Source of the DNA: a virus | Lineage: Duplodnaviria; Heunggongvirae; Uroviricota; Caudoviricetes | Length of the DNA stretch: 5,955 nt | Reading direction: 5' to 3' (one strand) | Virus record (IMG/VR): IMGVR_UViG_2663763000_000004 | Shown here: one piece after another, positions 2,766 through 5,805 of the stretch | How the letters are laid out: each line of letters begins with the position of its first letter | Position numbering within the stretch: position 1 is the first letter of the stretch | Notes under the pieces: generated by a model | Database searches by the model: none | What the model was told of the DNA's origin: nothing | The model's input: the letters and a program-made list of their open reading frames with translations, nothing else | Translations under genes and position numbers: made by a program

Positions 2766-3554
2766 TTACCCCCTGAAGCCTGGCGGGATCGCACTGTCCG
2801 GCAACGAGACAGTGTTAACCTGTCGGAGCAACGTCTCAGGCCGAACACCTTTCGGCGCGAACAGGCCCTGGTATTCATTGGCGATGCTGTGTCGAATCAC
2901 CTGCTCAGGTGTAAAACCCTGCTGACGGAATTTTTCCAGCTCCCGTATCGCCCCGTTAGCGCCCTGCTCCGTTCGAATCGGTTTTCGCAATGCCTGCCTG
3001 AACTTAACCCACTCATGCCAGAGTGTTTCCGGCAACCAGTCAGGCAGCTCGATAGCCTCCGGCTCGAATTTTTTAGACGCTCGTTTTTGGCGAGGGGGAT
3101 TTAGGGGGAGATCAGTATTTATATCTTCCTCTTCCTCTTCCTCTGGTAACGCTTTTTGATCCGTTTGTGTAACGCTGCCAGCGTTACCTTTTCGTTTCAG
3201 TTCGCGTATTTTTGTAACTCGCTCGTTTGTAACCGCCCGTTTTTTAGAGCTTTTTCCGTTATGACGTTCAAAGTTAGGTAGAGAAAGCCCACCGTCATTT
3301 TCGACCAGCCATCCAACCTGAATTAACGCATCAGCAAAACCAGCCATAAAAGTGATGCGGTCTATTGCACTTTTTGTAACGCCGCGAGCGTTACAATCTG
3401 CATTACCGTCTATCATTTGTTGATCCGCCCATGCCCAGAAGCGAATAACCTTCCCTAATGCGGCATCTGGATCAATATTCAGAATCTCAGCAAGCCTGAA
3501 TATTTCCGGCTTATCCGGCGTAATAACCTCGAGCTTTATCCAGTTTGAAGCCAT
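2766..3554 (-). CDS. phage replication initiator / replisome organiser (lambda O analogue, YdaU position)
   Basis: 262 aa; ATG at 3552-3554 with AAGGTG 7 nt upstream. Lies directly upstream of, and nearly abutting, the DnaC-like gene. The middle of the gene carries an iteron-like repeat cluster and an acidic EEEEEED linker, as lambda O carries ori. Family is assigned from position and architecture, not from recognised sequence identity. Confidence 0.7.
   Translation of the reverse strand: MASNWIKLEVITPDKPEIFRLAEILNIDPDAALGKVIRFWAWADQQMIDGNADCNARGVTKSAIDRITFMAGFADALIQVGWLVENDGGLSLPNFERHNGKSSKKRAVTNERVTKIRELKRKGNAGSVTQTDQKALPEEEEEEDINTDLPLNPPRQKRASKKFEPEAIELPDWLPETLWHEWVKFRQALRKPIRTEQGANGAIRELEKFRQQGFTPEQVIRHSIANEYQGLFAPKGVRPETLLRQVNTVSLPDSAIPPGFRG
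3145..3237. repeat. iteron-like repeat cluster inside the O-like gene (candidate replication origin)
   Basis: GTAACGC half-sites at 3146-3152 and 3169-3175, inverted GCGTTAC at 3181-3187, and variants GTAACtCGC (3214-3222) and GTAACcGCC (3229-3237); includes the 19-bp palindrome GTAACGCTG-c-CAGCGTTAC (3169-3187). Followed toward the gene 3' end by a pyrimidine-rich (CTTCCT)3 tract and an AT-rich patch (3110-3145). Confidence 0.5.
3374..3396. repeat. second copy of the GTAACGC-N5-GCGTTAC palindrome (TTGTAACGC-cgcga-GCGTTACAA)
   Basis: 9-bp perfect inverted arms inside the 5' part of the O-like gene; same core as 3169-3187 and 3566-3588. Confidence 0.5.
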
Positions 3555-3565
3555 TTGTTTTCACC

Positions 3566-3588
3566 TTGTAACGCTCGCAGCGTTACAT
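3566..3588. repeat. third copy of the GTAACGC-N5-GCGTTAC palindrome, just upstream of the O-like RBS
   Basis: TTGTAACGCt-cgc-aGCGTTACA in the 77-bp spacer between the YdaT-like stop and the O-like start, 14-30 nt upstream of the O-like ATG. No flanking T-run or A-run, so it is not a terminator. Confidence 0.5.
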
Positions 3589-3631: not shown

Positions 3632-4054
3632 TCAATGCACTACGACAGAATCGCCGGGCGACCCACCACCGCTGAAATGTGCTTTCCGGTAAACGGCCTG
3701 GACTGCATCATCATGCGCATCAATTGCCGTACTCAACGCTTCCTGCGCCGCCAGTAATGCACGGCGTTCCAGGGTATCGAAGATGCAGAGTCGGTGACGC
3801 AGCTCGCGCGGAAGAATTGCCAGAACCGCAGGGATCAGTTTCTGAATTTTTTCCCTTTGCGCTTTCGTTTCACCTTTCAACCAACGGTGATAGATATTCT
3901 GCTGATTGTTCCAGTCCTTGCCTGGTACAAGGGGCAATTCGCCGCCCCCCTGGCGCAGATATTCTTCAGTAATTGCGTTAGCGACCCACGCCTGCCCTTT
4001 TTCGGCTGCCAGGGCTAACAACACTGATTCGATGTGCTCATGCCTGATTTTCAT
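3632..4054 (-). CDS. ydaT: YdaT-family protein (CII-like regulator / putative toxin of the Rac ydaS-ydaT module)
   Basis: 140 aa; ATG at 4052-4054 overlaps the Cro-like stop as ATGA. The sequence MKIRHEHIESVLLALAAEKGQAWVANAITEEYLRQGGGELPL... matches my recollection of E. coli K-12 Rac YdaT (also 140 aa) very closely. It occupies the cII position between cro and the replication genes. Confidence 0.7.
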   Translation of the reverse strand: MKIRHEHIESVLLALAAEKGQAWVANAITEEYLRQGGGELPLVPGKDWNNQQNIYHRWLKGETKAQREKIQKLIPAVLAILPRELRHRLCIFDTLERRALLAAQEALSTAIDAHDDAVQAVYRKAHFSGGGSPGDSVVVH

Positions 4055-4293
4055 GAATCAACCGCTCCTATGCTGTTTTCGCTATGCTTACCGTCTGGGG
4101 GGAATACATCGTCAAGTCCACAATGAGCGCCAAGCCGATTAAGGGTAGAAACAATTTTTCTGCACTCCTCTAGTCCAGGGGTACGAAAATTTGCTTCGTA
4201 ATTTGCCAGTCGGCTTTGTATCCACCCTAACTGAACAGCAAGTTGTCTTTGAGACAGCCCAAGCTGTTTTCGATATGTTGAAATTTTGTTCAT
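4051..4293 (-). CDS. Cro-like HTH-XRE transcriptional regulator (80 aa)
   Basis: ATG at 4291-4293 with GGAGG (reverse complement of 4301-4305) 6 nt upstream. N-terminal HTH QLGLSQRQLAVQLGWIQSRLANYE of the Cro/C1 (XRE) type. First gene of the minus-strand operon, divergent from the repressor. Confidence 0.8.
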   Translation of the reverse strand: MNKISTYRKQLGLSQRQLAVQLGWIQSRLANYEANFRTPGLEECRKIVSTLNRLGAHCGLDDVFPPDGKHSENSIGAVDS

Positions 4294-4389
4294 TGAAAAC
4301 CTCCGATGACAATTTTAAACACACCTTGTGTTATATGGTCAATCTGTTTTGTGTTTTATGTAAATCACGATTCGTGATACAAGGATGCA
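4294..4389. promoter_or_regulatory. divergent immunity control region (PR-like / PRM-like promoters with operator candidates)
   Basis: 96-bp AT-rich spacer between the divergent HTH genes. Contains a 15-bp inverted repeat AACACAcctTGTGTT (4318-4332), a 15-bp perfect palindrome ATCACGAtTCGTGAT (4364-4378) just upstream of the repressor SD, and direct repeats TTGTGTTaTATG (4326-4337) and TTGTGTTtTATG (4349-4360). On the minus strand, a TTGACC, 17 nt, TTTAAA/TAAAAT arrangement could be the promoter for the Cro-like gene. Confidence 0.6.
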
Positions 4390-4809
4390 ATGGAAAAAGA
4401 AAACGAAAAAATTGCCGCTAGTAGGCTCAATGACAAAATTGCAATGCGTCTTAAAGAGCGCAGGCAGAAGCTTGGTTTATCTCAAGGAAAACTTGCTGAA
4501 ATCTGCGGATGGACGCAATCGCGTATAGGTAACTATGAGGCGGGCAGCAGAAATGTTGGAGTGCATGACGCTGTCGTATTGGGAAAGGCACTTGGCATAT
4601 CTCCTCCTGAGCTCCTATTTGGAGAACAGGAATCTTCTGAATTGTGGTTAAATGAATCCCAACGAAAACTTCTTGAGTTGTTTAACCAGCTACCTGGCTC
4701 AGAACAACAACGAATGATTGAGCTATTTGAAGTCCGGCTAAAAGAAATCGATGAGTATGTAGAAAAATATTTGAGAGGCAGGCTTAAAGATAATCCCCCA
4801 CCGGAGTAA
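4390..4809 (+). CDS. DicA-like prophage repressor (N-terminal HTH-XRE, C-terminal dimerisation region, no S24 peptidase domain)
   Basis: 139 aa; ATG at 4390 with AAGGA 4-5 nt upstream. HTH KLGLSQGKLAEICGWTQSRIGNYE; the C-terminal SQRKLLELFNQLPGSEQQRMIELFEVRLK resembles the DicA C-terminus (SPKELELLELFNALPESEQ...) as I recall it. Divergent from the Cro-like gene. Confidence 0.8.
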   Translation: MEKENEKIAASRLNDKIAMRLKERRQKLGLSQGKLAEICGWTQSRIGNYEAGSRNVGVHDAVVLGKALGISPPELLFGEQESSELWLNESQRKLLELFNQLPGSEQQRMIELFEVRLKEIDEYVEKYLRGRLKDNPPPE

Positions 4810-4838
4810 TGATCTTGCTATCACAGTAATATGCCAAT

Positions 4839-4864
4839 CAGCCCGCTATCAGCGGGCTTTTTTG
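4839..4864 (+). terminator. rho-independent terminator downstream of the repressor gene
   Basis: Perfect 8-bp GC-rich stem AGCCCGCT (4840-4847) / AGCGGGCT (4851-4858) with a 3-nt loop ATC, followed by a T-run (4858-4863), 30 nt after the repressor stop. Confidence 0.8.
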
Positions 4865-4892
4865 TACCATCATCATATGACACCCACCACAA

Positions 4893-4935
4893 AACACATT
4901 TCGTGTTGACATAAGAAAACGCATTGTGTTTAATA
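4893..4935 (+). promoter_or_regulatory. PL/OL-like promoter with overlapping operator-like palindromes, driving the downstream accessory gene
   Basis: -35 TTGACA (4906-4911), 17-bp spacer, -10 TTTAAT (4929-4934) with TG at 4927-4928. The inverted repeat AACACatttcGTGTT (4893-4907) overlaps the -35, and an imperfect repeat AAACGCattGTGTTT (4917-4931) overlaps the spacer and -10. The motif AACAC-N5-GTGTT is the same as at 4318-4332. Confidence 0.55.
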
Positions 4936-5103
4936 AGCATATCCAAACAACGCCCCACCAGAGAACGGCTGGACAATACCTCGAGTTATCCAGCCACTGA
5001 ACAGGGCTAAGTAGCCAGCCTGAGGCATACGAACATGACGGCAGTTGTTGATTGATACAAAGCGCAGTAGATAAAACGTTCCGCCACCCGGCGTTAAGGG
5101 GAA

Positions 5104-5805
5104 ATGAGGTCAACANNNNNNNNNNNNNNNNNNNNNNNNNNNNNNNNNNNNNNNNNNNNNNNNNNNNNNNNNNNNNNNNNNNNNNNNNNNNNNNNCCAGG
5201 AGATTGCAGCACACACACTTCGTCATCGTCTGAACGAACTTGAATTGGAATCGGTAACGAAAAAAGACACTGATAATATGGCTCGTAATGTGCGCGATGC
5301 GTTTACCGGATTGTATTTCTGTGCGTCTATAAATAAACACGACTCAGAGAGTGTGGCAAATAAAATTGCAGAAACGACAGCGCAAAACATCAATACGAAA
5401 CCAACGGAAGAAGAAATTGATCAGTTTGCTCATGATGCTGGTTTAAAAAACAAGAAAGAAAAATCGCCATATGCGGGGAACATGTTTGTTTATGACAATC
5501 TCATCAGAATTCGTGGCGAAATTCCGGCGGAATACCTGGCAAGAGTCCATCAGGCATTGCTTAAAAATTTGGAAACAGAATTATTTGATGGCAACACTAA
5601 CGGTTTCTTCATGGTATCAGGCCTTGAGAAAGACTGGGATGCAGAAAAACGCTGGAATGTTGCTACATGGTTATTCAGTAACAGAGCCGCTGCACTGGAA
5701 GCTTCGGCATGTATTTGCGGCCTGTTCTTAACAGACCACAAATATAATCTGGATGTGTACAGTTATATTTACGCTGAACACGGTCCACTCTGGATTGACT
5801 GGTAA
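5104..5805 (+). CDS. hypothetical protein of unknown function; lower-GC accessory gene in the cI-proximal position, interrupted by an assembly gap
   Basis: ATG at 5104 with strong SD AAGGGG (5095-5100); 80 N at 5116-5195; then a continuous open frame 5196-5805 ending in TAA (5803-5805). Hand-counted GC in three 60-nt blocks (5281-5460) is roughly 35-43 percent, against roughly 50 percent in a replication-gene block (2401-2460). The gap length, and so the frame link between 5104 and 5196, cannot be trusted; an in-frame ATG at 5278 has no SD. No motif I recognise. Confidence 0.5.
   Translation: MRSTXXXXXXXXXXXXXXXXXXXXXXXXXXXQEIAAHTLRHRLNELELESVTKKDTDNMARNVRDAFTGLYFCASINKHDSESVANKIAETTAQNINTKPTEEEIDQFAHDAGLKNKKEKSPYAGNMFVYDNLIRIRGEIPAEYLARVHQALLKNLETELFDGNTNGFFMVSGLEKDWDAEKRWNVATWLFSNRAAALEASACICGLFLTDHKYNLDVYSYIYAEHGPLWIDW
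5116..5195. other. assembly gap (80 N)
   Basis: Run of exactly 80 ambiguous bases, a conventional scaffold-gap placeholder. Confidence 0.99.

Follow-up and report, generated by a model that had tools for sequence, protein, structure and literature searches.

The window, that is, the whole stretch of 5955 bases analyzed here, is the immunity region of an E. coli lambdoid prophage of the Rac/Qin type. A prophage in E. coli O145 and O157 strains matches it at 99.8% identity. Counting any place where 80% or more of the 1077-base immunity segment is covered, this segment occurs in 153 of 5426 complete E. coli genomes, O145 and O157 strains included. The order of the elements is a Cro-like gene read leftward, a first set of putative operators, a repressor gene read rightward, a terminator and a promoter with the same putative operators.

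The Cro-like gene (4051 to 4293, minus strand) is the first of the leftward early operon. This open reading frame encodes a protein of 80 amino acids with an HTH_3 domain (Pfam, E = 6.7e-10) and is annotated as an HTH regulator in E. coli O145. It is followed by ydaT-like, ydaU-like and ydaV-like genes, of which the last two are replication genes. YdaT (3632-4054), the CII analogue, matches the Pfam family YdaT_toxin (5.1e-11) and is annotated as ydaT. The YdaT motif, TTGATT-N6-AATCAA, is unrelated to the putative operators and has its sole good match at the cro/ydaT junction.

The DicA-like repressor (4390 to 4809, plus strand) is a protein of 139 amino acids with an N-terminal HTH_3 domain and a C-terminal helix region (LLELFxQLPxxEQ...KEIDEYVEKYL), which is the most conserved part of the repressor family in the alignment. 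It shares 29% identity with K-12 DicA over 129 amino acids (E = 2e-15), the C-terminal LLELFxxLPxSEQ included. The solved HTH domains closest to it, according to sequence matches in the PDB, include those of the 434, lambda and P22 repressors. Pfam gives HTH families only, and no S24 peptidase/RecA-cleavage domain was found in the repressor.

On the right, the ydfA-like (DUF1391) gene is placed at 5115 to 5195 (plus strand) by alignment to the near-identical complete genome of E. coli O145 (L001). Only its first base is visible in the window; the run of N at 5116-5195 replaces ~191 nt, which hold the rest of this gene and the start of the next one. The ydfA-like protein counts 50 amino acids, belongs to DUF1391 (Pfam, 2.9e-29) and is 90% identical to K-12 YdfA. 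Most of the gene for a 212-aa protein follows (5196 to 5805, plus strand); this protein falls in phrog_2151 (1.8e-147), annotated as of unknown function, and matched no Pfam family. The rest of the operon was read in L001, where the order is ydfA-like gene, 212-aa protein, dicF, dicB remnant, kil, ydaE, recE and recT, with a DicF RNA match of 75 bits. No N gene or nut site was recognized downstream.

Operator-like repeats and the promoters they overlap

The inverted repeat AACAC-N5-GTGTT, searched as AACACNNNNNGTGTT on both strands of the 5955 bases, has exact matches only at 4318-4332 (AACACACCTTGTGTT) and 4893-4907 (AACACATTTCGTGTT). The chance expectation is 0.01, and two matches were found in none of 200 dinucleotide-preserving shuffles. 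This bears out the sequence-only reading, in which the same repeat had been noticed in both the divergent region and the downstream promoter. A third copy, matching in nine of ten positions, is present as well. Its best register is 4916-4930 (AAAACGCATTGTGTT), exactly 23 bp from the 4893 site and one base away from the register first proposed for a degenerate copy (4917-4931). A weight matrix trained solely on sites of non-E. coli homologues places the same three positions at the top of the window (4893, 21.3 bits; 4318, 19.1 bits; 4916, 16.3 bits), while the best score in shuffled sequences averages 9.2 bits.

The intergenic region between the divergent genes (4294-4389) is 96 bp long. Sites at 4318, 4341 and 4364 lie over the spacer of the leftward promoter PR, over its -35 and over the -10 of the repressor promoter PRM, respectively. 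PR reads on the minus strand as TTGACC (4342-4337; GGTCAA on the plus strand), 4 nt, the perfect operator OR1 (AACACaccttGTGTT, 4318 to 4332) and TAAAAT (4317-4312). OR1 fills the PR spacer beside the -10, and its half-sites show no variation in 24 E. coli-type sequences. The candidate -10 TAAAAT (4312 to 4317, minus strand) has a 19-bp spacer and is supported by the sequence and by the layout in homologues, which share a -35, 3-4 nt, a 15-bp operator and then the -10. TTTAAA (4314-4319, minus strand) is an alternative read from the sequence, with a 17-bp spacer. GTCAA is kept at the position of the PR -35 in all homologue classes.

The two other sites in this region are candidates. OR2 (AATCTgttttGTGTT, 4341 to 4355) has a weak left half and a perfect right half, overlaps the PR -35 and lies 23 bp from OR1; homologues also show a weak site at +23. 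OR3 (ATCACgattcGTGAT, 4364 to 4378) is a perfect palindrome with two mismatches to the motif and overlaps the PRM -10. By matrix score, OR1 alone is significant among the three. The scores of OR2 (8.5 bits) and OR3 (6.8 bits) are not above chance, and both are therefore kept as positional candidates only, based on the 23-bp phasing and on their conserved position in homologues. The single divergent-region operator proposed earlier is retained at 4318-4332, with probably two more sites that had been missed.

The right half of OR3, GTGAT, forms together with ACAAG a candidate extended -10 of PRM (TGaTACAAG, 4375 to 4383, plus strand; TGnTACAAG pattern), and the ATG of the repressor comes 6 nt further on. 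Homologues have GTG[GA]TAAAAT at this place, followed after 6-7 nt by the ATG. Since the -10 lies so close to the start codon, a leaderless repressor mRNA is implied. Leaderless mRNAs have been reported for lambda cI and paaR2 (PMC8630535).

Behind the repressor gene, an intrinsic terminator (4840 to 4863, plus strand; 8-bp stem, six of its pairs G-C, with a T-run behind it) would end the repressor transcript. The second perfect operator, OL2 (AACACatttcGTGTT, 4893 to 4907), has the best score of the window. It overlaps the -35 TTGACA of a rightward promoter (4906 to 4911, plus strand) as claimed before, two bases being shared, and in most homologue classes TTGAC follows the operator. Among E. 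coli-type copies of OL2 the half-sites are constant and four of the five N5 columns vary. OL1 (AAAACgcattGTGTT, 4916 to 4930; 9/10) is located between the -35 and the -10. The order on the plus strand is TTGACA, 4 nt, the 4916 site and TAATAA (4931-4936), a -10 option with a 19-bp spacer. The other option, TTTAAT (4929-4934, plus strand), has a 17-bp spacer and lacks the -11 A. Homologues carry TATAAT or TAAATA immediately after the operator on this promoter. PR on the minus strand and the PL-like promoter on the plus strand align gaplessly as modules of -35 TTGAC, 4 nt, operator and -10.

A consensus promoter scan of the window reported neither the PL-like promoter nor PR, because TTTAAA and TTTAAT in the 17-bp register have no A at position 2 (the -11 A). 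Both promoters are retained on comparative grounds, with an ambiguous -10 assignment. The operator-bearing promoter at 4906-4936 is the PL/dicBp equivalent of the early-left operon, since the unit from the ydfA-like gene to recT follows it in the complete genome. It is a second early promoter beyond the repressor gene and is directed away from it. An early promoter with operators had been foreseen at this place; what it serves is the early-left operon and not a single accessory gene, as the gene of the 212-aa protein had been called.

The early-left transcript would start with a leader of ~175 nt (4941 to 5114, plus strand). This leader contains the core AAGTAGCCAGCCTGAGGCATACGAA (5009-5033), the block GCGCAGTAG (5062-5070) and the 3' hairpin CGCC-ACCC-GGCG (5080-5091), all on the plus strand. 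Leaders behind many unrelated repressors have these blocks too, among them those of phages mEp237 and ST64B and of more than 120 IMG/VR contigs. In most relatives the blocks make up a domain of 64 nt, which combines a closing helix with an H-type pseudoknot. Across 38 distinct sequences of this domain, 94.6% of the cells are paired, compared with 26-42% when the structure is slid, and double changes occur in 10 of 20 pairs. The window keeps the pseudoknot core and the 3' hairpin only, the hairpin showing compensatory changes in three of four pairs across relatives. A covariance model of the type-1 leader did not find the window with default filters and, with filters off, gave a local match of 9.4 bits to the core only. 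Folded as a single sequence, the window leader reaches an energy equal to that of shuffles (z = -0.10). Rfam 15 (E<=1; window and six related loci) yielded no match in the leader and a sub-threshold Trp_leader match on the terminator, and a literature search for the leader sequence returned unrelated primer matches only.

An HK022-type put RNA was considered and rejected. The putL RNA of HK022 lies just downstream of PL and has two stems; its sequence (L088) shows no similarity to the leader, the leader model gives no match in HK022, and the second copy expected past PR is absent, the leader motifs being single in the window and in L001. The lambda PreS sRNA (bioRxiv 10.1101/2024.10.31.621285) was set aside, as its sequence is lambda-specific. 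Tentatively, the initial 175 nt of the transcript could represent a widespread, as yet undescribed family of structured leaders in early-left operons of lambdoid prophages without a recognizable N gene. If functional, such a leader would be a cis-acting controller of the repressor-held operon, and it may act on processivity or antitermination, on stability or in ligand sensing.

Conservation of the sites and co-variation with the repressor

The comparison covered 85 loci whose repressors are related to that of the window (43-100% identity), taken from species-representative genomes and from IMG/VR. The same layout recurs across these loci, which answers the motif search in homologous prophages proposed in the sequence-only reading. 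In most classes with a GW...NYE-type recognition helix, a perfect site is found at -72 to -76 relative to the repressor ATG, with a second CAC-N5-GTG site at -26/-27. The downstream promoter of the homologues carries two to three sites in 23-bp steps.

The core of the half-site, CAC/GTG, is constant. Its two outer bases track the start of the recognition helix, in the same way at OR1 and at OL, which gives the variants AACAC, TTCAC and GACAC in related loci. Repressors with the helix GW[TAV]QSR[IV]GNYE are associated with AACAC in every half-site counted (52 of 52 at OR1, 50 of 50 at OL). The helix GWS[GA][AS]SR..ANYE goes with TTCAC or CTCAC, and GW[AS]T[AG]SR.GNYE mostly with G[AT]CAC at OR1, the OL set being more mixed. 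In a relative with an unrelated HTH (L007), TTAAG-N7-CTTAA sites are found upstream of the repressor gene instead. Operator specificity is matched to the repressor in this manner, as would be needed for immunity specificity, with the classes co-varying at both locations. Identical half-site changes in both regions, in step with the helix, are as predicted if one protein binds both.

Within the E. coli-type set (24 distinct sequences with repressors at least 98% identical to that of the window), 3 of 50 half-site columns are variable. The corresponding figures are 14 of 57 for fourfold-degenerate codon sites and 27 of 49 for the N5 plus the stretches between neighboring sites (spacers versus half-sites, Fisher test, 5.5e-8). 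The half-sites are therefore constrained and the intervening bases unusually free. What these loci show directly is where the sites are, how they are placed and conserved, and that they co-vary with the repressor helix.

The HTH of the Cro-like protein is 45% identical to that of the repressor over 42 amino acids. The helix of the Cro-like protein (GWIQSRLANYEAN) is nearly the same as that of the repressor (GWTQSRIGNYEAG), with GW[TI]QSR[IL][GA]NYEA in common, and over 30 nt the coding DNAs of the two helices are 83% complementary to each other. It is very likely, from this resemblance, that the Cro-like protein shares the sites of the repressor. Its specificity is not explained by the same code, because a near-identical Cro-like protein is also encoded in loci with TTCAC/CTCAC operators (L052 group). 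The window and those loci have an ATCAC half in OR3 in common, which makes a preference of the Cro-like protein for OR3 plausible.

A probable lambda-type switch and alternative readings

Judged from sequence comparison, the AACAC-N5-GTGTT sites are almost certainly operators of a lambda-style prophage switch. The best overall explanation, to which we give a probability of about 85%, is a lambda-type immunity switch with operators at PR/PRM and at PL that are read by the repressor. The parallel with lambda OR and OL drawn in the sequence-only reading finds its support in the gene order of lambda and Qin and in half-sites that co-vary with the repressor helix at both regions. It is this co-variation that points to the repressor as the ligand of the sites. 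Repression of the corresponding promoter has been demonstrated by experiment in the homologous systems of Qin and CP-933P.

Binding, order of occupancy, transcription starts and route of induction are inferred as follows. A dimer of the 139-aa DicA-like repressor would read the 15-bp AACAC-N5-GTGTT site via its helix-turn-helix. On OR1, it would silence PR, because this site fills the PR spacer, and the operon of the Cro-like gene, YdaT and the replication genes would be off. Through OR2 at the PR -35 and OR3 at the PRM -10, the repressor would probably stimulate its own leaderless transcript and, at high level, limit it. Occupancy of OL2 (4893-4907) and OL1 (4916-4930) would silence the rightward promoter of the early-left operon. 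Upon loss of the repressor, PR and the PL-like promoter would both fire. This loss would presumably come about through an antirepressor, since the repressor has no self-cleaving domain. After induction, the Cro-like protein would occupy the same sites, probably OR3 first, and hold off the repressor gene.

It could also be that the downstream promoter sites are bound chiefly by the Cro-like protein, which would lower the early-left operon after induction, the repressor acting mainly at OR. The almost identical recognition helices of the two proteins speak for this, as does the repression of PL933P in CP-933P, which is equally strong with YdaS and with PaaR2 (PMC8630535). However, the outer bases of the OL half-sites track the helix of the repressor, while a near-identical Cro-like protein accompanies AACAC in the window and TTCAC/CTCAC in the L052 group. 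We regard this as rather unlikely; it is compatible with the lambda-type switch and does not exclude it.

With a distance of 575 bp between OR and OL, the OL sites might mainly anchor a loop for sharper regulation of PR and PRM, with only a secondary part in repressing the downstream operon. Lambda CI and PaaR2 octamerize and form loops (PMC8630535), and the strong conservation of the C-terminal helix region of the repressor family would be in line with such contacts. However, the sites coincide with the -35 and the spacer of a promoter, and every class with a recognizable downstream promoter keeps them there. Such precise placement would not be needed by a pure anchor, and we consider this role improbable as the main one.

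The alignment of PR and PL over ~48 bp, -35 and -10 included, would also be expected if the motif were a relic of the duplication of a promoter module, PR and PL being paralogous and the motif bound by nothing. This is very improbable, as half-sites are less variable than fourfold-degenerate sites and the bases between them more variable, and across genera changes in the half-sites accompany those in the repressor helix. Binding by a host transcription factor is the least probable reading of all: no support for it was found, CAC-N5-GTG recalls the sites of host regulators superficially at most, the motif varies from one prophage to another within the same host genera, following the phage repressor, and the half-sites of CRP (consensus TGTGA-N6-TCACA) are oppositely oriented.

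The OR/OL arrangement in itself is ordinary and well known, and its principle is textbook knowledge. The operator sequence AACAC-N5-GTGTT was previously undescribed, and the immunity type to which a concrete operator code and a promoter map can now be assigned was uncharacterized. Three related helix variants appear to read three half-site variants, and such a code of helix and half-site would predict homo- or heteroimmunity of co-resident prophages. With the lambda-type switch, loss of the repressor is predicted to release dicF, kil and recET, in analogy to DicA of K-12.

Comparison with lambda, CP-933P and Qin

Lambda shares with the window the tripartite operators in steps of ~23-24 bp, the overlapping divergent PR and PRM, and a second operator set on PL beyond the repressor gene in the same orientation. 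The leaderless repressor transcript and the sharing of operators by two proteins are further common features, both of them predicted for the window. In contrast to lambda, the repressor of the window has 139 amino acids and no S24 peptidase/RecA-cleavage domain, as is the case for DicA and PaaR2. OR and OL are 575 bp apart compared with 2.4 kb in lambda, and only two OL sites are evident. The repressors of 434 and P22 are likewise of the HTH_3 type, with short symmetric operators in which the outer half-sites are conserved and the central sequence is free. Their sequence similarity to the repressor of the window is low (E ~1e-3), and the site of the window is 15 bp long with 5-bp half-sites.

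CP-933P of E. coli O157:H7 resembles the window in its lambda-like switch, whose repressor is short and non-cleavable and which also includes a Cro analogue and YdaT (PMC8630535, PMC9986795). Operators are found in both cases in the divergent region and at a PL-like promoter, and the repressor mRNA is leaderless in CP-933P, as predicted here. PaaR2 and YdaS footprint OR of CP-933P, and each represses PL933P ~100-fold (PMC8630535). Unlike those of the window, the operators of CP-933P are 18-bp palindromes of the GTTTAGTAA type, four of them in OR. The PaaR2 operon also carries the toxin-antitoxin genes paaA2-parE2, whereas in the window a terminator and the PL-like promoter come directly after the repressor gene.

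The dicC-dicA-dicBp locus of Qin in E. coli K-12 goes back to Bejar et al. 1988 (cited in PMC10448788). Three operators are present in the dicC-dicA region of Qin and three on dicBp (PMC3441716, PMC10448788). Oc, the perfect one, is bound by DicA, but Om and Oa by themselves are not, and the dicA gene is activated by its own product (PMC3441716, PMC10448788). Repression of dicBp by DicA is 22-fold (PMC10448788). Several features set the window apart from Qin. The Qin operator, TTGTTAG-N6-CTAACAA (Oc, TTGTTAGTCATAACTAACAA), differs from AACAC-N5-GTGTT, and the two prophages should therefore be heteroimmune. The Cro-like protein of the window is unrelated to DicC (no BLASTP alignment), its leftward operon is Rac-like (YdaT, YdaU, YdaV), and its leader of ~175 nt compares with one of ~70 nt in Qin. 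On the downstream promoter, Qin (read in L002) has one operator upstream of the -35 where that of the window overlaps the -35; both have one in the spacer.

The overall order is nevertheless the same, with a divergent Cro-like gene and a short repressor, an operator-bearing promoter, ydfA, dicF and dicB. Qin and the window are also alike in having one perfect inverted repeat beside the Cro-side promoter together with two weak sites (Oc, Om and Oa in Qin). Two features of a Qin-type region are found here: a repressor of the DicA family and a promoter followed, in the complete genome, by ydfA, dicF, a dicB fragment and kil.

Leader RNA of the early-left operons

Early-left operons that follow repressors of unrelated types begin with a conserved leader RNA. 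In most relatives, this leader takes the form of a 64-nt domain, built by a closing helix and a pseudoknot, both with strong covariation. Examples of this full domain (type 1) are found in the comparison loci L003 (2034-2099), L089 (2998-3063) and L090 (2993-3058). More than 120 IMG/VR contigs carry the leader, and a comparison of its domain with Rfam gave no match. The leader of the window (4941-5114) has only the core of the domain (5009-5033), recovered as a local match of 9.4 bits, plus a 3' hairpin (5080-5091), which shows compensatory changes when compared with the relatives.

In some related phages (L208, L209, L154, L158 and L107), the leader domain has a hairpin on its 3' side, along with an rrn-type boxA that matches exactly (GCTCTTTAACAA). 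The domain thus occurs together with a signal for Nus-factor antitermination and does not take its place.

Divergent regulators and their operators

A 30-nt inverted repeat, with its arms at 4236-4265 and 4469-4498, is 83% complementary and corresponds to the DNA coding for the helix-turn-helix of both divergent regulators. The two protein regions, in the repressor and in the Cro analogue, share 45% identity over 42 amino acids. The DNA-binding domains of these regulators are paralogous.

The Cro-like protein of the window (4051-4293) has nearly identical counterparts in the prophages L052-L063, which encode a different repressor, with the helix GWSGSSRIANYEAG, and carry operators of the TTCAC/CTCAC type. 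The presence of such a similar Cro-like protein alongside another repressor and other operators points either to a mosaic joint within the immunity region or to a Cro whose specificity is broad.

Variability is high within and between the operators of the window. In 24 near-identical E. coli copies, 55% of the columns are variable in the central N5 segments (4323-4327, 4898-4902 and 4921-4925) and in the gaps between sites (4333-4340 and 4908-4915). For fourfold-degenerate codon sites in the neighbouring repressor gene, the figure is lower, at 25% (Fisher p=0.0015). The Citrobacter-type loci likewise have variable N5 segments and gaps. This excess diversity could stem from recombination or from a mutational hot spot, or it could serve to tune how strong the operators are.

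Sequence gap and an unexpected phage record

Where the window has a run of 80 Ns (5116-5195), the near-identical genome of E. coli O145 has ~191 nt. The run conceals a DUF1391 (ydfA-like) gene, together with the first codons of a 212-aa gene. Because the N-run replaces real sequence, the ORF list of the window contains a false 233-aa ORF reading through the Ns.

This E. coli immunity region is also present, at 99.8% identity, in PP818812.1, a record labelled as an “Actinobacillus phage”, where it is annotated with DicA and ydaT. Actinobacillus is an unexpected host for this sequence, and the record may result from contamination or misassignment.

Candidate origin repeats and a possible YdaT site

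The repeat TGTAACGC-N5-GCGTTAC occurs in three copies (3167-3189, 3374-3396 and 3566-3588), two of them within the YdaU-like replication gene and one just 5' of its start. In appearance, these repeats resemble iterons, or sites bound by an initiator, at the prophage origin.

The sequence CTGATTTTCATGAATCAA (4044-4061), which spans the stop codon of cro and the start codon of ydaT, may be a target of the CII analogue (YdaT) for a PRE-like promoter. It differs by a single mismatch from TTGATT-N6-AATCAA, the YdaT recognition site reported for prophage CP-933P of E. coli O157:H7 (PMC9986795).
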